Source: Minisyncoccota bacterium (lineage in GTDB: Bacteria > Patescibacteriota > Minisyncoccia > Phycocordibacterales > JBAYGS01). Taken from it: a stretch of 64,000 nt of DNA. The notes under the pieces were generated by a model that saw nothing but the letters and a program-made list of their open reading frames with translations, ran no database searches and had not been told where the DNA came from. Shown piece after piece: positions 35,520 to 42,896 of this stretch. The stretch lies in contig JBAYGS010000002.1 of the NCBI GenBank assembly GCA_041666545.1, positions 106,395 to 170,394 of the forward strand. Reading direction: 5' to 3'. The translations under genes and the position numbers were made by a program. Position 1 is the stretch's first letter; the number at the start of each line of letters is the position of its first letter.

Positions 35520-37124
35520 ATGAAAATAAAATCAATAAAAATAAATAATTTCCGCTCAATCAAAGAAGTTGAAATAACTGGACCCCTTGATGATGTGTGG
35601 ACATTCGTCGGTCAAAACAATGCCGGCAAATCATCAGTAATGCATGCAATCAGAGCTTTTTATGGTGAATATGATGTGAAAGCCGAGGACTTTTGCCGAG
35701 CAGATGGTTCCAATAAGCCAATAGAGATTACTATGGAGTATAAGCTTTCCGACGATGAATTCTTACAGCTTCCTGAGCAATACAAATTACCCAATAATAT
35801 TCTTTCTGTAGTCAAAAGATATGCGAGAGATTCTTTGAAGGGTGAATCACACGGATTTACTAAAGATTCGACAACTAGTGAAATAAAGGAAGTAGAGGAA
35901 GAATTTTTTGGAGCAAAAAACGTTGCTGTGGGAAAATTAGGAACGGTTATTTATATCCCCGCTGTTAAAGATTTAGGGGAGGAATTAAAAAAGACAAAAT
36001 CATCCCTATTTTCAAAACTAATAAGTCGAATACTTACAGAGACGCTTACAGACCTTCCTTCGTGGAATAATCTTATTAAAAATACTGAGGAATTTGCGAA
36101 TGATTTAAAGAGTCCAGTTAAAGCGACTGGCGAATTTAGAAGTGTGACTGAGATTGAAGAAAATTTATCAAACCGACTTAGTGGTTGGGGTTTAAAATCT
36201 CAAATAACAATTTCCGCTCCTTCTCCGGAAGACATTATTTTGTCGGGAGCCAAACTAAGATTAATTTCAAATGAAACAGGGGTTGAAGAAGACCCAATGA
36301 ATCTTGGTTCAGGTGCCCAACGTTCGATTGTAAATAACCTACTTCTTTTGTGGGCTGAGATAGAAAGCAAAAAAATAAAGACTGATAAAAAGAAATTTAG
36401 CGGTGAGATAACCCTTCTCTTGTATGAGGAACCGGAGGCACTTCTTCATTATGATCAAGAGTGTAAGTTGTTAAGAAATCTTGAAGATCTTTCTAAGACC
36501 AATAACAGCCAGGTACTTATTTGTACGCATTCACCCAATCTCATTAGTGCAAAAAATGAATCTCTAAAATGTGTATCAAGATTTGTAAAAAATTCTGGTA
36601 TTTCTACTAAGTACAGTGCAACAGAAATTTTTTTGAATAATCTTAAAACAAATGCACCAGATTTTGATTTTGTACTTTGGCTTAACCCTGATCGTAATAC
36701 TATGTTTTTTGTTGATAAGGTTATTCTAGTGGAAGGCCCATCTGATAAAGCCTTCTTAAATTATCTTACGAGAGAAAATAGCCTTGATAAAAATTCATAC
36801 ATAGTTGATTGTGGGAATAAAAGCAACTTGCCTAATTTTATGAAACTATGTGAGCAGTTTGGCATCAAGCATTCCGTTATGTTTGATAAAGATGGTGATA
36901 CTTCAGCAAACCATAAAGCTTGGAATAAAGCTGTTGTAGATGCAAAAAATTTATTCACCGTAGACATTAAAGACTTCCCGATAGACCTTGAGACGTATAT
37001 TAGATTTGATAAAGTTCCAGTTACAGGCAAGTTTAAAAAACCTCTTGAAGTTCTACGCCAGTTAAAAGAAGGTAAACTGTCTGTTGTTCATAATACAGAA
37101 TTTGTAACTTTTTTAAATAACTAA
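35520..37124 (+). CDS. OLD-family (overcoming lysogenization defect) ATPase-Toprim nuclease
   Basis: N-terminal ABC-type ATPase (MKIKSIKINNFRSI...VGQNNAGKSSV Walker A). C-terminal Toprim with VILVEGPSDKAFL (catalytic E) and DKDGD (DxD). Confidence 0.7.
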   Translation: MKIKSIKINNFRSIKEVEITGPLDDVWTFVGQNNAGKSSVMHAIRAFYGEYDVKAEDFCRADGSNKPIEITMEYKLSDDEFLQLPEQYKLPNNILSVVKRYARDSLKGESHGFTKDSTTSEIKEVEEEFFGAKNVAVGKLGTVIYIPAVKDLGEELKKTKSSLFSKLISRILTETLTDLPSWNNLIKNTEEFANDLKSPVKATGEFRSVTEIEENLSNRLSGWGLKSQITISAPSPEDIILSGAKLRLISNETGVEEDPMNLGSGAQRSIVNNLLLLWAEIESKKIKTDKKKFSGEITLLLYEEPEALLHYDQECKLLRNLEDLSKTNNSQVLICTHSPNLISAKNESLKCVSRFVKNSGISTKYSATEIFLNNLKTNAPDFDFVLWLNPDRNTMFFVDKVILVEGPSDKAFLNYLTRENSLDKNSYIVDCGNKSNLPNFMKLCEQFGIKHSVMFDKDGDTSANHKAWNKAVVDAKNLFTVDIKDFPIDLETYIRFDKVPVTGKFKKPLEVLRQLKEGKLSVVHNTEFVTFLNN

Positions 37125-37137
37125 CTTTTTCATTTCG

Positions 37138-38535
37138 ATGACAAAAATGTATCAAACAAAAGAGCAAGTTTTGGAGAAAGCAGAAACAATTTTGCATAAA
37201 TCTTTGCGTAGAGCTATCTCTACAGAAGCAATCGGAATTATTGAGGCCCAAATTGGAGAATACGGAATGAAGCGCAAAGGCTTCTTGGGTGATTTGGTAG
37301 AAAAATACTTTTTCGACATTAATCCAGGAAATATTAGCGAGCCAGATTTTAAAATTGCAGAAGTTGAACTTAAAACAACTCCGCTAAAGAAACATAGCAA
37401 TAACAAATTGGTTTCAAAGGAAAGATTAGTTTTTTCGATGATTAACTACGACACTGTTGTAAATGAAACATGGAAGCTAAGCTCTTTCTTGAAGAAAAAC
37501 AAGTCACTGTTATTAATGTTTTACTTATGGATAGAAAATAAGAGCATTCTTGATTATGAATTTAAATTTGTTCATTTATTGAATTTACTAGAAGATATTT
37601 CCAATGAGGATGTTTTTCAAATTCAGAAAGATTGGGAGTATATTGTTTCTAAAATAAAACGAGGAGAAGCGCATCTTCTATCTGAAGGCGATACCTATTA
37701 TCTTGGTGCTTGTACGAAGGCTGCGAACAGTAGAGTTGTAAGAGACCAGCCAATGAATCGTGCACCTGCAAAACCTCGTGCATTTTCCTTCAAACAACAA
37801 TATATAAATTACCTAATTAAAACAAAACTACTTGGCGAAAAAACAAATACGGATTCAATTTTTAAGAAACAGAGACGGATTGAAACCATCGAAGATTTAA
37901 TTAAGGAAAAATTTTCTGCATTTATAGGAAAAACTGATAAAGAGATACTTAAGAAACTTGGCTCAAATCTTGGCACAAAAGCAAAAAGTTATAAGAGATT
38001 GATTGTTAATAGGATTCTTGGTGTTAATTCAAATAATATTGAGGAACTAGAAAAGGCTAATATAACTCTTAAAGTAATAACACTTGAATCTAGTGGAACA
38101 CTCAGGGAATCTATGTCATTCCCTGCGTTTGATTATAAAGATTTAATGATCCAAATTTGGAATGATGACGAAGAAGAATCAATGGCTGATTTTCACCTGC
38201 AACTTGAGACTAAAAAATTCTTATTCGTTGTGTTTCAAAAACAAAAAGGAAGTGGTGACATACTACTCAAAAAAACTATGTTTTGGAATTTCCCAATGAA
38301 AGATATTGCTGAAGCAGAAAATGTTTGGAAAAAAACTGTTGATTGTATTAATGATGGAAGATATGACGAATTACCAAAAATTAAAGATAGTAAGGTTGCA
38401 CATGTTCGCCCGCACGGGAAAGATTCTACGGACACAATAGAAACACCTCAAAAAACATTAGAAATGAAGCGCTGTTTCTGGTTAAACGCTAAATATATAC
38501 AGCAAGCCATAGAAAACAGTCAAGATCAAGATTGA
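37138..38535 (+). CDS. Sau3AI-family type II restriction endonuclease (MutH-like catalytic N-domain + duplicated C-domain). GATC specificity is inferred by homology, not seen directly.
   Basis: MutH/Sau3AI catalytic motif KGFLGDLVEKYF...PDFKIAEVELKTTP. Extended collinear similarity to R.Sau3AI (KERLVFSMINYD, GEAHLLSEGDTYYLGACTKAAN, PRAFSFKQQY, ESMSFPAFD, KKFLFVVF, AHVRPHG). Confidence 0.75.
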   Translation: MTKMYQTKEQVLEKAETILHKSLRRAISTEAIGIIEAQIGEYGMKRKGFLGDLVEKYFFDINPGNISEPDFKIAEVELKTTPLKKHSNNKLVSKERLVFSMINYDTVVNETWKLSSFLKKNKSLLLMFYLWIENKSILDYEFKFVHLLNLLEDISNEDVFQIQKDWEYIVSKIKRGEAHLLSEGDTYYLGACTKAANSRVVRDQPMNRAPAKPRAFSFKQQYINYLIKTKLLGEKTNTDSIFKKQRRIETIEDLIKEKFSAFIGKTDKEILKKLGSNLGTKAKSYKRLIVNRILGVNSNNIEELEKANITLKVITLESSGTLRESMSFPAFDYKDLMIQIWNDDEEESMADFHLQLETKKFLFVVFQKQKGSGDILLKKTMFWNFPMKDIAEAENVWKKTVDCINDGRYDELPKIKDSKVAHVRPHGKDSTDTIETPQKTLEMKRCFWLNAKYIQQAIENSQDQD

Positions 38536-38566
38536 TCTTTTTATCTCTATTTGTTAGAATGGGAAC

Positions 38567-39982
38567 ATGAAAAGAATTCGAGTTGTTGAACTGTTTGCAG
38601 GCGTAGGTGGCTTTCGTGTTGGTTTGGAGACTGCTACAAGAAATAATGGGCACATCAGGTATGAGGTAGTTTGGAGTAGTCAGTGGGAACCGGGTGCAAG
38701 TACTCAGCATGCTTCTCAAATCTATGAAGTAAATTTTGGTAAAGATGGACACTCGAATGAGGATATTCAAAAAATTATTGATAATAAATTCCACGAAATT
38801 CGAGACCATGATCTTTTAGTCGGAGGATTTCCTTGTCAAGATTACTCAGTAGCTAGGACATTAAGTCAGGCGAAGGGCTTAGAAGGGAAAAAGGGTGTTT
38901 TGTGGTGGTCAATATACAATATTCTTCAAAGGAAAGGTAAAAAGGCCCCTTCGTTCCTTTTATTGGAGAACGTCGACCGTCTGCTCAAATCCCCATCAGT
39001 ACAAAGAGGTCGTGATTTTGCTGTGATGCTTTCCTCACTTAATAATTTGGGCTATGCCGTTGAGTGGAGGGTCATAAACGCCGCAGAATACGGGATGCCT
39101 CAAAGAAGAAGGAGAGTCTATATTTTGGGCTATAAAAAAGGCACGGAAATTTATAAAAATCTCGAAGCGCAAGAAGATAAGGAAAGATGGATAAATAAAG
39201 ACGGGGTTACCGCCAAGGCTTTTCCGGTAAAAAATATAGTCCTAAATAAAAATAAATTCACATTGGAAAAAGATCTCGTAAAATTAACTAAAAATTTTTC
39301 AATGGGCAGTCCCCAAAAAAGTCCTTTTGAAATTTCTGGCATCATGATAAATGGTGAAGTTTATACGTACAAAGTTACCCCTGATTATGACGGCAAATTT
39401 ATTATTTTGAAGGATATTATTGAGCCGGATGAGAAAAAAATACAAAAAGAATTTTTCATTGATAAAAAAGATTTGCCAACATGGAAATATTTGAAGGGAG
39501 GGAAGAAGGAGGCCCGAAAAAGTAAGGGAGGTTTTACCTATGATTATTCAGAAGGCTCTATGGTCTTTCCCGATTCTCTTGAAAAGCCGTCCCGAACAAT
39601 TGTGACCGGTGAAGGAGGTATCTCACCTTCCAGATTCAAGCATGTGATAAAAACAAAGACCGGTAAGTTGCGTAGATTGACCTCAGAGGAGCTTGAGAGG
39701 TTGAATATGTTTCCGGAAGGCCACACAAAATTTATGCATAACGGGAAGATTACTCCAGATACAAAGAGGGCGTTTATTATGGGAAATGCGTTAGTTGTCG
39801 GTGTCATTGAAGGTCTTGGCAAAGCTCTGATTGAATTTATAAACAAGAAGCCAAAAAAGGGCAGGATGAGTGGAAAAAGGAAAAAATATTTAAGGGGCGA
39901 ACGCTCGCCACAACCACTAGGTGAAGATGTCCCCAAGAGGCTCGTGAGAACCGTTCTTGTGAGGGGGACATATTTAAGTTAA
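38567..39982 (+). CDS. DNA (cytosine-5)-methyltransferase (cognate M of the Sau3AI-like system)
   Basis: Motif I ELFAGVGGF, motif IV GGFPCQDYSVA, motif VI ENV, and a variable target-recognition domain. 471 aa. Confidence 0.9.
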   Translation: MKRIRVVELFAGVGGFRVGLETATRNNGHIRYEVVWSSQWEPGASTQHASQIYEVNFGKDGHSNEDIQKIIDNKFHEIRDHDLLVGGFPCQDYSVARTLSQAKGLEGKKGVLWWSIYNILQRKGKKAPSFLLLENVDRLLKSPSVQRGRDFAVMLSSLNNLGYAVEWRVINAAEYGMPQRRRRVYILGYKKGTEIYKNLEAQEDKERWINKDGVTAKAFPVKNIVLNKNKFTLEKDLVKLTKNFSMGSPQKSPFEISGIMINGEVYTYKVTPDYDGKFIILKDIIEPDEKKIQKEFFIDKKDLPTWKYLKGGKKEARKSKGGFTYDYSEGSMVFPDSLEKPSRTIVTGEGGISPSRFKHVIKTKTGKLRRLTSEELERLNMFPEGHTKFMHNGKITPDTKRAFIMGNALVVGVIEGLGKALIEFINKKPKKGRMSGKRKKYLRGERSPQPLGEDVPKRLVRTVLVRGTYLS

Positions 39983-39991
39983 TAATTTATG
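39939..39991 (+). repeat. 52-bp direct repeat DR-left (hairpin + GGGGG RBS + ATG)
   Basis: GCTCGTGAGAACCGTTCTTGTGAGGGGGACATATTTAAGTTAATAATTTATG is about 90% identical to 41766-41818. Confidence 0.7.
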
Positions 39992-40510
39992 AAAAAAGGC
40001 AAAGAAAAAGTTTTGGCAGGGATTGTTTTGAAATACTATCGTCTCTCCGATAAAAATGAAAAACCGGAAGGCGGACCCTCTGGAATTACTTGCGCGTATT
40101 GCCTCCTCCAAAATATTGTGCATATCGGCAGTGGTTTTAAGGACAAGAAGGGTAAGATCCATCACATCTGTGAACGATGCGCGGTAGAGGCCTATCGCAA
40201 GGAACATGGTTTTAAGACTTTGGCTGTGGCCGAGGCTAGGCGGAGGCGAATGTTTGATGTTGGGTATCTCTTCAACGAGATATTAGTTGACGAGTATATG
40301 AAGATTAAAGGGATTAAAGACTCTAAAAGTCTCGGTGAAAAAATTAATGATATTTTTGTCAGAGCTCCGGAATTGTATAACTATCTATTCAGTAAGGAGG
40401 AGAAAGTGAGGATTGAGGAAATCGAAGTTCAAGCTGAAATTGAAGCAGAATTAAGGGGAAAGATTGGAATTGTTGACCTTAAGCAGTTTTTCATTGAGGT
40501 CGGGTTGTAG
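39989..40510 (+). CDS. hypothetical Cys-rich protein (173 aa, CxxC...CxxC zinc-ribbon-like)
   Basis: Last gene of the radC-old-R-M operon. CAYC and CERC pairs. Followed by a 12-bp-stem GC hairpin at 40513-40540. Confidence 0.35.
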   Translation: MKKGKEKVLAGIVLKYYRLSDKNEKPEGGPSGITCAYCLLQNIVHIGSGFKDKKGKIHHICERCAVEAYRKEHGFKTLAVAEARRRRMFDVGYLFNEILVDEYMKIKGIKDSKSLGEKINDIFVRAPELYNYLFSKEEKVRIEEIEVQAEIEAELRGKIGIVDLKQFFIEVGL

Positions 40511-40618
40511 TTTTTGGCCCCGCCGTGTCCCACGGCGGGGCCTCACTGGGCCGATAGGGCAATAATATCTGTATTCTAAGGCCCGCATTTTGGATGTCAA
40601 GTTATCAACAGAAATTGC

Positions 40619-41359
40619 TTGATTTTTTTACAAGTTTTGTATATACTTTTTGGTATGACCAACAAGTATATACAAAAAATTAAGGAATTTCGTCTTAAAA
40701 AAGGTCTTTCTCAGGAACAAGTCGCGCAAGCTATCGGGGTCTCCCGCCCGACGTATACGGCAATTGAAGCTGGGAAAAAACAGAATCTCGATCTTGATGA
40801 GGCTCAAAAGCTTGCTAACTTTTTTGGAATCGGCTTGAACGAGCTAGTCTCTGGAACAATAGAAAATGTTGAGAAATATAAGCAGATGATACTTGCTTAC
40901 CTTAGGATGAACCTTTCAATTTCTAGAAATGGAAGGGTTACAAAGACTAAGCTTGCCAAACTTCTTTATTTTGCAGATTTTGCGTGGTTCTATGACCATC
41001 TAGAAAGTATGAGTGGAATGCAATATAAAAAATTTGCCTACGGTCCGGTGCCCGATACTTTTTTTCGTGTTCTCGATGAGTTGGAGGAAGATGGAAAAAT
41101 TAATATTGAAAGGAAGAAAGAGGACGGAAAGGATGTTTTCTTAATTACGGAATCGGAAAGTAATAAAAATGAGAAAATTACAACTATCTCTGCCGAGGAA
41201 AGGAAGTTGATGGAGAGGATTGCCAAAAAATGGAGAGGCAAAAACACTCAAGATATTGTTACTTTTACGCACAATCAATTTCCTTACACTGTTTGTCGAG
41301 ATAATGAAGTGATACCTTATGAATTGATAACCCAGGAAGACGCCGATAAGGTGTACTGA
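40619..41359 (+). CDS. XRE-family HTH protein fused to a Panacea (DUF4065, SocA-like) antitoxin domain
   Basis: HTH_XRE (LKKGLSQEQVAQAIGVSRPTYTAIEAG). C-terminal KTKLAKLLYFADFAWFYDHLESMSGMQYKKFAYGPVPDTF matches the Panacea/DUF4065 signature (KLxKLLYxxD...G.....GPV). Confidence 0.55.
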   Translation: MIFLQVLYILFGMTNKYIQKIKEFRLKKGLSQEQVAQAIGVSRPTYTAIEAGKKQNLDLDEAQKLANFFGIGLNELVSGTIENVEKYKQMILAYLRMNLSISRNGRVTKTKLAKLLYFADFAWFYDHLESMSGMQYKKFAYGPVPDTFFRVLDELEEDGKINIERKKEDGKDVFLITESESNKNEKITTISAEERKLMERIAKKWRGKNTQDIVTFTHNQFPYTVCRDNEVIPYELITQEDADKVY

Positions 41360-41364
41360 TTGAA

Positions 41365-41766
41365 ATGGTCATGCAAGGTAATTATTCCGTACGGATTGAG
41401 AAATATGCTGAAAGGCACTTCATAAGTAGTTTCGCTAAGAAGTATAACCAGCATTGGGATGTCACGCTTAGAGCGATTGTTTTTTCGCTTGAGCATATAG
41501 ATTCACTGCTTCTCACCGATAAGGCCGAGACGATATCTGATGTCGATGGCGTAAAGATAATTAAGATGAAGTTTACTGTGGCCAAAAGTGGAGAATCGGC
41601 TAAGTCCTCTGGCAATAGGTGTATTGTTGCCTGGCATAAGGACAAGCAGTTCGTGTCCGTATTGCTTGTATACGGTAAGACGGACTTAAGTGGTCATAAC
41701 GAGACTGCGGAGTGGAAAATGCTGATTCGAGAAAATTACCCAGAGTATAAAGAGCATTGCAAATAG
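41365..41766 (+). CDS. small hypothetical protein (133 aa) encoded immediately after the Panacea-like gene; candidate cognate toxin, family unknown
   Basis: 6-nt gap after the Panacea gene. No recognisable catalytic motif. The C-terminal RCIVAWHKDKQFVSVLLVYGKTD only loosely resembles the RelE/ParE-fold C-terminus. Confidence 0.3.
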   Translation: MVMQGNYSVRIEKYAERHFISSFAKKYNQHWDVTLRAIVFSLEHIDSLLLTDKAETISDVDGVKIIKMKFTVAKSGESAKSSGNRCIVAWHKDKQFVSVLLVYGKTDLSGHNETAEWKMLIRENYPEYKEHCK

Positions 41767-41818
41767 GCTCGCAAGAACCGTTCTTGCGGGGGGGACATAT
41801 TTAAGTAAACAATTTATG
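41766..41818 (+). repeat. 52-bp direct repeat DR-right (hairpin CGCAAGAA-CCGT-TTCTTGCG + GGGGGGG RBS + ATG of the denV-like gene)
   Basis: Copy of 39939-39991. The two repeats bracket a 1.83-kb three-gene cassette. Confidence 0.7.
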
Positions 41819-42169
41819 CGCGTCTGGGACATACACCCAAAACATTTATGCAGAAAGCACCTGCTGGGAGAACACCGGGAGCTTCATGGTCTTTGGAATA
41901 TTTTGACCAAACACGGCGGTAAGGGCGGGTATTCTCAGCATCCGGAAACTAAAAGGTGGGTAGGGAAAACTCGCGCGCTTTTTGGTAGACATCAAGCGTT
42001 GGTAAAAGAGATGGAGAAGCGAGGCTATAAGCATCAGTCATTGCTTGATAGGAAACTTGCAAAAGGTAAAGGTGGTCAAATTGTTTTTATAAATACCATC
42101 AAGGAGCAAAGAGTGATATTGAGAAACAAGCCTTGCGAGTGCTTTGCTCTGCATCATCGGAGTAAGTGA
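41816..42169 (+). CDS. pyrimidine dimer DNA glycosylase (T4 endonuclease V/denV-like, Pyr_excise family)
   Basis: MRVWDIHPKHLCRKHLLGEHRELHGLW...GYSQHPETKRW matches the conserved N-terminal region of the bacterial denV-like family. Confidence 0.55.
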   Translation: MRVWDIHPKHLCRKHLLGEHRELHGLWNILTKHGGKGGYSQHPETKRWVGKTRALFGRHQALVKEMEKRGYKHQSLLDRKLAKGKGGQIVFINTIKEQRVILRNKPCECFALHHRSK

Positions 42170-42254: not shown

Positions 42255-42896
42255 ATGGCTAAGTCTGTTTGTGCTAAAATGGGGCTTATGTCCGACGAAC
42301 AAACACAAACTCCGACCGACACCTCAATACCTCCGCCTGAACCGGAAGTAGTAACCCCAAGCTCCGAAATGGCCCCACCTGAAATTGCACCTGAAGTGGG
42401 GGCGCCAAGTGGAACATTGGCGCCTGAGGGGCCGTCTGGGGCCGTGGGAGGCTCTGGGGAAAGCGGAAATTTGGAGGGGGTGAAAGATATCATTTCGAGT
42501 TCGGATTTGCCGGTGGGCCAACCTTTGGCCGAGGTGGCTTCCGCCCCGCCGACTTCGGAGGCGGCGGGGCCGGCCCCAGAGGTTTCTGCACCTGTTTCAG
42601 TTCCGATTTCAGGCCAGAATGCAGCTCTGATTAATCGGGGCAATTTGCCGAAGGCTTGGGCCAAGATTCAAGAGACCAAGAGTAGGAAACTTGAAAAAAT
42701 TATGGCGGCACTTGATGGAAAAGTCCCCACTACGCTAAAGCTACGCGGGGCAGGCAAAATTTCAAATGACGAAGCAGAGAAATTGCTTCGGGTATCTGAT
42801 GCTACGGCAACGAGGTATCTTGAAGTGTTGGAAAGGGAGAACCGGATTAGGCAAGTTGGAAAGATCGGTCAAGGTGTTTTCTACGAGAAAATTTAG
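42255..42896 (+). CDS. Pro/Ala/Glu-rich protein with C-terminal winged-helix DNA-binding domain
   Basis: Low-complexity PEPE/APE repeats, then ISNDEAEKLLRVSDATATRYLEVLERENRIRQVGKIGQGVFY (wHTH-like). Confidence 0.35.
   Translation: MAKSVCAKMGLMSDEQTQTPTDTSIPPPEPEVVTPSSEMAPPEIAPEVGAPSGTLAPEGPSGAVGGSGESGNLEGVKDIISSSDLPVGQPLAEVASAPPTSEAAGPAPEVSAPVSVPISGQNAALINRGNLPKAWAKIQETKSRKLEKIMAALDGKVPTTLKLRGAGKISNDEAEKLLRVSDATATRYLEVLERENRIRQVGKIGQGVFYEKI

Follow-up and report, generated by a model that had tools for sequence, protein, structure and literature searches.

Two closely spaced genes on the + strand of contig JBAYGS010000002.1, from a Minisyncoccota bacterium, very likely form a toxin-antitoxin pair. 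They lie within a 64,000-nucleotide (nt) stretch of the contig, called the window here, whose numbering is used throughout. The upstream gene encodes a protein in which an XRE-type helix-turn-helix (HTH) domain is fused to a Panacea domain, and the downstream gene encodes a small protein of 131 or 133 amino acids (aa). The overall explanation that we favour, and consider fairly likely, is a type II PanAT-class module composed of an HTH-Panacea antitoxin and a RelE/ParE-superfamily toxin of ~131 aa, closest to HigB-2 of Vibrio cholerae. A preliminary description of the locus had put forward a candidate toxin-antitoxin pair, and this proposal is well supported by the domain content, by a two-gene arrangement conserved across varied neighbourhoods, by the toxin fold and by decayed copies. 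Two hairpins bracket the module and are its probable left and right boundaries or terminators (Table 1). A T-tract is absent from both, and a consensus-based terminator scan did not call the inverted repeat at 41770–41788.

The boundaries of both genes differ slightly from those first assigned. The 246-aa antitoxin of the preliminary description stands as the longest open reading frame (ORF A, 40619–41359, from TTG 40619), but the likely product is the 234-aa protein starting at ATG 40655. This is almost certainly the real start because an identical database protein (P0403) has 234 aa, homologues have 226–234 aa, and TTG 40619 is itself the −35 hexamer of the promoter. Homologous antitoxin genes likewise begin at the ATG equivalent to 40655. 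The intergenic gap, previously given as 6 nt, is 5 nt if the toxin starts at ATG 41365 and 11 nt if it starts at the family-consensus ATG 41371. The 131-aa product from the latter start is identical to a protein (P0001) from a Candidatus Paceibacterota metagenome-assembled genome (MAG). An AAGGTG motif in the 3′ end of the antitoxin gene suggests that the toxin may be translated from a Shine-Dalgarno site, or that its translation may be coupled to, or closely follow, that of the antitoxin.

Table 1. Features of the two-gene module and its immediate flanks (window numbering; antitoxin residues in 234-aa numbering).
Feature	Position	Strand	Basis or remark
G+C-rich hairpin, perfect 12 bp, GGCCCCGCCGTG / CACGGCGGGGCC, 3-nt loop; probable left boundary or terminator	40516–40542	+	Repeat search; directly 3′ of the 173-aa ORF
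−35 hexamer TTGATT	40619–40624	+	Promoter scan; TTGACT in most homologous loci, same offset; coincides with TTG 40619
43-bp palindrome TTTTGTATATACTTTTTGGT-ATG-ACCAACAAGTATATACAAAA; candidate operator	40635–40677	.	19 of 20 arm positions complementary
−10 hexamer TATACT	40642–40647	+	17 nt after the −35 hexamer, 7 nt before ATG 40655
Putative antitoxin gene, panA-type, 234 aa	40655–41359	+	Pfam; 100%-identical database protein P0403; AlphaFold2 model
XRE HTH of the antitoxin, ~aa 9–64	40679–40846	+	
Panacea domain of the antitoxin, ~aa 100–208	40952–41278	+	
Conserved C-terminal tail of the antitoxin	aa 209–234	+	
Shine-Dalgarno-like AAGGTG	41348–41353	+	Read from the sequence; within the antitoxin gene 3′ end, 11 nt before ATG 41365
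Putative toxin gene, panT-type, 133 aa from ATG 41365 (131 aa from ATG 41371)	41365–41766	+	
Inverted repeat CGCAAGAAC-C-GTTCTTGCG, then a G-run; probable right boundary or terminator stem	41770–41788	+	Read from the sequence; 4 nt past the toxin stop codon

The upstream protein is a member of the Panacea family. The preliminary description had named the Panacea (DUF4065) domain by motif recall, and a domain search confirms it: ORF A scores 58.2 bits against SocA_Panacea (PF13274, E 1.8e-15, residues 112–220 in longest-ORF numbering, profile positions 1–109 of 113), above the curated gathering cut-off of 25.7 bits. The fusion to an XRE HTH was correctly recognised as well, with HTH_3 matching residues 21–76 in the same numbering (E 1.3e-17). 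PF13274 is precomputed for all of the 120 listed antitoxin homologues. From PADLOC and PHROGs, ORF A drew only generic HTH, DarG and "transcriptional regulator" matches. In the AlphaFold2 model of the antitoxin (predicted local distance difference test score, pLDDT, 76), the HTH occupies residues 4–66 and the Panacea core residues 72–208, with an embedded helix and β-hairpin. The C-terminal tail is highly conserved and is modelled with low confidence; it probably belongs to the Panacea domain, because part of it (P-[YW]-x5-E-[VI]-x-[YP]-YE) is common to a Panacea antitoxin with a different partner. Foldseek superposed the HTH at 1.2–1.7 Å on C.AhdI, C.BclI, SinR, DdrO, 434 Cro, CapH and HipB, which are dimeric operator-binding repressors. 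The Foldseek matches of this model were limited to the HTH domain, and no solved Panacea structure was retrieved.

The antitoxin and toxin genes are paired far beyond chance. Relatives of the toxin are encoded at 69 loci in distinct GTDB species genomes, which by title are nearly all Patescibacteria (Paceibacterota, Taylor-, Nomura-, Zambryski-, Andersen-, Adler-, Kaiser- and Campbellbacteria, Minisyncoccia and TPA-labelled "Saccharibacteria"); one is a short contig binned as Methanosarcinales. Two of the loci have no upstream DNA, leaving 67 in which pairing could be assessed. At 65 of these, the toxin gene directly follows a same-strand gene whose product matches ORF A in its HTH half and in its Panacea half; the two genes are separated by 2–13 nt or overlap by 4–14 nt when the longest-ORF starts are used. 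Co-occurrence of the pair in other genomes, which the preliminary description had named as a check, is thereby borne out. The two loci without an intact antitoxin hold remnants of its gene. At one of them (L072, 3900–4393), a toxin of intact length is preceded by only the last ~25 antitoxin codons ("...LITQEDPDYVY") and carries W31R and W117R at otherwise invariant positions; the other (L076, 900–1285) is a decayed copy with fragments of both genes. The locus is thus a conserved same-strand two-gene module with a small putative toxin.

The downstream protein belongs to a small, discrete family. As the preliminary description had suspected, the 133-aa ORF (ORF B) has no match in Pfam, NCBIfam, PADLOC or PHROGs. 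Relaxed-threshold Pfam scans of 42 and then 95 family members yielded scattered chance matches only. All 390 relatives retrieved by a word-indexed search carry the name "hypothetical protein", and most come from Patescibacteria MAGs. The family amounts to about 390 clusters at 90% identity; at 50% identity, only 219 clusters emerged when 1.84 billion representatives were searched exhaustively with a profile. In the 95-sequence alignment, K25, K67, F70, S78, G83, R85, L100, Y103, K105 and T114 are at least 90% conserved and E113 is invariant (all toxin residues are given in the 133-aa numbering, start ATG 41365).

The fold of this protein is that of a toxin. Its AlphaFold2 model, built with good confidence from a 42-sequence alignment (pLDDT 85; predicted template modelling score 0.82), comprises a strand at 8–11, a long helix at 13–43, four strands at 54–103 and C-terminal helices at 113–132. 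This compact α/β arrangement, with an antiparallel sheet and a C-terminal helix, matches solved members of the RelE/ParE fold. The loose RelE/ParE resemblance mentioned in the preliminary description is therefore real and demonstrable by fold, and the housekeeping fold that it had envisaged as an argument against a toxin was not what the structural comparison returned.

Within this superfamily, the sequence evidence points to HigB-2. The only PDB sequence matches of the toxin were five V. cholerae HigB-2 entries (E ~0.2–0.6 with the single sequence and a close profile). With a 95-sequence profile (28–55% identity), five HigB-2 entries were matched at E 0.012–0.017, the next match being at 1.1, and hhalign of this profile against HigB-2 gave a probability of 78.7% (E 1.7e-5, 59 columns), both results lying below the usual confidence thresholds. 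The corresponding hhalign probabilities were 1.3% for Escherichia coli RelE and 0.3% for YoeB (reference sequences entered by hand). The entire HigB-2 sequence so entered itself matches the Pfam family PF06296 "RelE" at 34.5 bits. The family motif S-G-N-R-C-I-V ... L-L-V-Y-G-K-T-D aligns on G-G-S-R-I-I-Y ... L-L-T-I-Y-G-K-N-E of HigB-2, and R85, Y103 and K105 of the toxin align with HigB-2 R64, Y82 and K84. Together with R51, these HigB-2 residues are needed for ribosome-dependent mRNA cleavage, alanine substitution causing 170- to 3000-fold losses (Hadzi et al. 2017, PMC5416850). K67, which is near-invariant, shares strand β2 with position 71, the counterpart of R51, and the low-confidence loop 70–84 corresponds to the disordered basic β2-β3 loop of HigB-2. 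We conclude that ORF B encodes a divergent, presumed toxin of the RelE superfamily that current models miss and that is most like the HigB-2-type ribosome-dependent mRNases; it probably is such an mRNase.

Transcription of the module appears to start at a conserved promoter immediately ahead of the antitoxin gene. TATACT occurs at a fixed offset in 25 of 63 unique loci and in versions shifted by 1 nt in others, and the layout gcTTGACTtttttaca...TATACT-7 nt-ATG is kept across homologous loci. Because only 7 nt separate the −10 hexamer from the ATG, this layout implies that the antitoxin mRNA is leaderless or nearly so. The same segment contains a palindrome whose three central bases are the antitoxin start codon and which covers the −10 box and codons 2–8. 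Near the ATG, 34 of the 63 unique loci have a palindrome with arms of at least 14 nt; the corresponding frequency is 0.16% in shuffles and 0.8% at random positions of these loci. In 32 of the 34, its centre is no more than 1.5 nt from the middle of the ATG. The arms co-vary between loci (GTAT/ATAC, GCAT/ATGC, CTAT/ATAG, CCAT/ATGG). The palindrome is likely an autorepression operator, overlapping the −10 box, the transcription start and the start codon, to which a dimeric HTH antitoxin would bind. A known-RNA identity for this element was rejected, as all Rfam matches were sub-threshold.

The pair appears to be an autonomous, horizontally mobile two-gene module that is nearly confined to Patescibacteria and often sits in defence islands. 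Its neighbourhoods vary between loci. One copy lies within a type I restriction-modification (R-M) operon, between hsdS and hsdR (L002–L007). In two unrelated Patescibacteria genomes (L077:788–4187 and L079:1–3818), the pair is directly downstream of a recurring block, which may be a separate defence module, of RhuM or Bro-N, a MazG-like gene and a large Schlafen-group-3 helicase fused to an S24 peptidase. Two further loci place it among housekeeping genes, and a scan of IMG/VR viral contigs found no relative, giving no sign that phages carry the module. In the window, the pair sits at the edge of a low-GC block (32–39% versus ~45% in the flanks), and the part of this block at 35000–40000 (ORFs 35520–37124, 37138–38535 and 38567–39982) forms a small defence island directly upstream. 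Of its products, PADLOC assigns one, an OLD/GajA-like ATPase-TOPRIM protein, to Old (E 1.3e-56) and another, a Sau3AI/MutH-like type II restriction enzyme, to REase_II (E 1.4e-79); the third is a C5 cytosine methyltransferase.

Several further observations concern the genes around the module. A 173-aa ORF at 39989–40510 (+), between the methyltransferase gene and the module, matches no family in any library, and its CAYC...CERC cysteine pairs may form a zinc ribbon. Immediately downstream of the toxin gene, 41816–42169 (+) encodes a pyrimidine-dimer DNA glycosylase of the T4 endonuclease V type (Pfam Pyr_excise, E 5.7e-26), an accessory repair gene. It is followed at 42255–42896 (+) by a 213-aa ORF with a low-complexity N-terminal half (P, E, A, S, G) and a short, structured-looking C-terminus, for which Pfam and PHROGs gave no match. 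In the Candidatus Andersenbacteria contig MHHO01000003.1 (L002:7252–8308), a second HTH-Panacea antitoxin is 27% identical to that of the window; its 111-aa partner has no Pfam match, and hhalign against the toxin family gave a non-significant probability of 8%. The two PanAT pairs flank the hsdR gene of a type I R-M system in this genome, an instance of Panacea partner swapping inside one genome.

In the mechanism we propose, free toxin would enter the ribosomal A site and cleave translating mRNA by means of R85, Y103, K105 and the basic β2 residue K67, arresting growth. The antitoxin would bind and neutralise the toxin directly through its Panacea domain, its conserved C-terminal tail or both, and an antitoxin dimer would place its HTH domains on the 43-bp palindrome and repress its own leaderless operon. 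The biological role is probably stabilisation of the island or genome, abortive-infection defence, or both, because the module often sits in defence islands.

The identity of the toxin and the mode of neutralisation each admit an alternative. The main mechanistic rival is a ParE-type poison, which would share the RelE/ParE fold and inhibit DNA gyrase rather than cleave mRNA. We regard it as very unlikely: ParE ranks below RelE, HigB, YoeB and HigB-2 among the fold matches, hhalign gave RK2 ParE 0.3% against 78.7% for HigB-2 (reference sequences entered by hand), and the near-invariant R85, Y103 and K105 coincide with the RNase residues of HigB-2, a pattern that disfavours a ParE-like poison. 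The toxin thus lacks the combination expected of a ParE, namely sequence similarity to ParE and no RelE-type catalytic residues. Alternatively, in a type VI system resembling SocAB, the Panacea protein would not inhibit the toxin by binding but would, as an adaptor, hand it over to a housekeeping protease such as ClpXP. The Panacea domain family has SocA as its founding member, as the name of PF13274 records, and ORF A has weak matches to an NCBIfam SocA model (E 5e-4) and to DarG. Its score against the SocA equivalog NF047745 is nevertheless 19.7 bits for a cut-off of 190, and the toxin is RelE-like in fold, not SocB-like. Moreover, all PanAT pairs tested so far neutralise through complex formation (PMC8832971, PMC10440598), and a palindromic operator together with an N-terminal HTH is what a classic type II system has; a protease adaptor is hardly likely here.

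Two other readings concern the palindrome and the toxicity of the small protein. If both arms of the palindrome were transcribed, the RNA could form a hairpin that has the AUG in its loop (−20.6 kcal/mol, z-score −6.6) and would sequester the antitoxin start codon on read-through transcripts and so control translation, rather than serve as a DNA operator. Read-through from the upstream gene is conceivable, the hairpin at 40516–40542 having no T-tract. A transcript from the module's own promoter would lack the left arm, because that arm holds the conserved −10 box and the ATG follows 7 nt later. With G.T accounting for only 2 of the 25 arm mismatches across the 34 loci, nothing suggests that RNA pairing is selected for, Rfam gave no family match on the palindrome (sub-threshold miRNA-hairpin matches only), and the antitoxin HTH is of the class that binds palindromic operators as a dimer. 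Control by an RNA hairpin is accordingly improbable. Another possibility is that the small protein has a RelE fold and no toxicity, and that it partners an HTH-Panacea transcription factor, for instance as a co-regulator, without arresting growth. Its toxicity is something we infer, its family stays below the thresholds of all toxin hidden Markov models, and L072 keeps an intact-looking small ORF without an intact antitoxin. On the other side stand the strong conservation of catalytic-type residues, the strictly bicistronic arrangement with autoregulatory features, the patchy and mobile distribution with decayed copies, and the substitutions W31R and W117R in the orphan toxin of L072, as expected for an inactivated toxin. 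There is little chance that the protein is harmless.

Several points weigh against the type II, HigB-2-like reading that we favour. In multidomain PanAs, the Panacea domain is sometimes not the neutralising element (Ernits et al. 2023, PMC10440598). The toxin family does not reach the threshold of any RelE/ParE-type Pfam or NCBIfam model (only 1 of 95 members touches PF06296, E 0.014), and the window toxin is recognised by none of the curated RelE, ParE, HigB, YoeB, YafQ or Gp49 models. The sequence link to HigB-2 is borderline and spans only ~45–60 residues; among the HigB-2, RelE, ParE and YoeB sequences entered by hand for hhalign, HigB-2 alone was checked against the PDB alignment, at 52–96 only. 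HigB-2 R51 aligns with T71, a position that is R or K in most close relatives and variable across the wider family. The toxin chemistry may differ from that of HigB-2, because E113-T114 has no counterpart among the validated HigB-2 residues. Translation of a leaderless mRNA is our expectation from the promoter spacing.

A broader role is conceivable, in which the module would be a Patescibacteria-wide abortive-infection system. The Panacea domain would sense a phage cue and free a HigB-2-like RNase with catalytic variation of its own (the invariant E113-T114, and T71 where HigB-2 has its fourth arginine), and expression would be set by an unusual operator centred on a leaderless start codon. 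We consider this rather unlikely. If it were true, a single DNA element would control transcription initiation as well as the 5′ end used in leaderless translation, the toxin would deserve its own family definition, and the module would offer a handle on phage defence in ultra-small episymbiotic bacteria.

The type II reading itself gives a function and a testable mechanism to a family that is annotated solely as "hypothetical protein" and is almost entirely from Patescibacteria, a group in which few genes beyond core metabolism are understood. Through it, the Panacea network gains a RelE/HigB-2-like partner from candidate-phyla-radiation genomes, and the regulatory architecture (promoter, start-codon-centred palindrome, leaderless mRNA) is clean and strongly conserved. 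What is new here is a family without a curated model, the evidence from many Patescibacteria genomes, and a promoter, operator and leaderless layout not previously described. Current concepts are unchanged, since each element (HTH-PanA antitoxins, RelE-fold PanT toxins, autorepressed type II operons) was already established. In practice, the gain is better annotation and possibly a new Pfam or NCBIfam family. The suggestion in the preliminary description that the partner may be an undescribed toxin holds in that it has no Pfam or NCBIfam model and is a "hypothetical protein" everywhere; it fails in that the protein belongs to the RelE/ParE superfamily, closest to HigB-2, and a similar cluster, T14, is already catalogued. 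There is no support for a new toxin type, given that this fold is the commonest among toxins and that the cognate cluster has been listed before.

Panacea-based systems provide the closest comparison. Panacea is a hyperpromiscuous antitoxin domain with an N-terminal HTH in 343 PanAs, and its partner toxins include ParE, PemK, MqsR, Fic/Doc and toxSAS, with PanA-toxin complexes shown (Kurata et al. 2022, PNAS, PMC8832971). Standalone Panacea domains neutralise toxins directly; in multidomain PanAs this task falls to other segments, with Panacea as a possible sensor, and Panacea networks are linked to OLD/TOPRIM-type defence systems (Ernits et al. 2023, PMC10440598). Dataset S1 of Kurata et al. 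lists a predicted PanT cluster, pT15/T14, marked "notest", of which one representative has a HHpred match to HigB-2 of 99.7%. T14 is encoded antitoxin-first with an HTH-PanA in Ca. Saccharimonas aalborgensis and a TM7 genome (gap −11), as well as in Pedobacter, Flexibacter and Cryosericum (PMC8832971). The window module shares with it the Panacea domain with an N-terminal HTH, the antitoxin-then-toxin order and a gap of a few nt or an 11-nt overlap; the −11 overlap also occurs in about 11 loci of our set (L035, L055–L058, L060, L062, L067–L069, L073, L075). The window family may be a sister family of T14 or a divergent Patescibacteria branch of it, because its HigB-2 signal is much weaker (79% in hhalign versus 99.7% in HHpred); the two agree in architecture, host group, the −11 gap and affinity to HigB-2. 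The cluster members of 10 divergent toxin representatives and a homology search from a Saccharibacteria member (P0202) contained no RefSeq accession of the Kurata dataset. Promoter and operator architecture is not described in the T14 entry of Dataset S1, unlike for the window module.

The individual parts of the module also have counterparts in well-studied systems. V. cholerae HigB-2 of the HigBA2 system (PF06296 "RelE"; PMC5416850) shares the RelE-like fold, the aligned motif G-x-R-[CI]-I ... LL-x-Y-x-K, conserved counterparts of the catalytic R64, Y82 and K84, the flexible β2-β3 loop, the C-terminal helix and a partner antitoxin with an XRE-type HTH. The window toxin differs in falling below the PF06296 threshold, in its single long N-terminal helix (13–43) with ~20 extra residues, in T71 for R51 and in the invariant E113-T114. 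Gene order is reversed, with the toxin first in higBA2 and the antitoxin first here, and the toxin-facing part of the antitoxin would be the Panacea domain, whereas in HigA2 it is a disordered N-terminal segment. The archaeal RelE (PHS013, PDB 1wmi), RelE, YoeB and YafQ mRNases show no detectable sequence similarity to the window toxin (hhalign values above) and have different catalytic residue sets; RelE, YoeB and YafQ are paired with RelB, YefM and DinJ rather than with a Panacea antitoxin. R-M controller (C) proteins and the HipB and HigA autorepressors resemble the antitoxin in the superposed HTH (1.3–1.7 Å for C.AhdI, C.BclI, SinR and HipB) and in a palindromic site that overlaps the promoter of their own operon. 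Unlike those of C.AhdI, HipB and HigA, the candidate site here has at its centre the start codon of a probably leaderless mRNA and consists of coding sequence over half its length. The combination of an HTH-PanA antitoxin with a HigB-2-like RelE-fold toxin is thus of an already catalogued kind, of which the window family is at most a divergent, unannotated branch.

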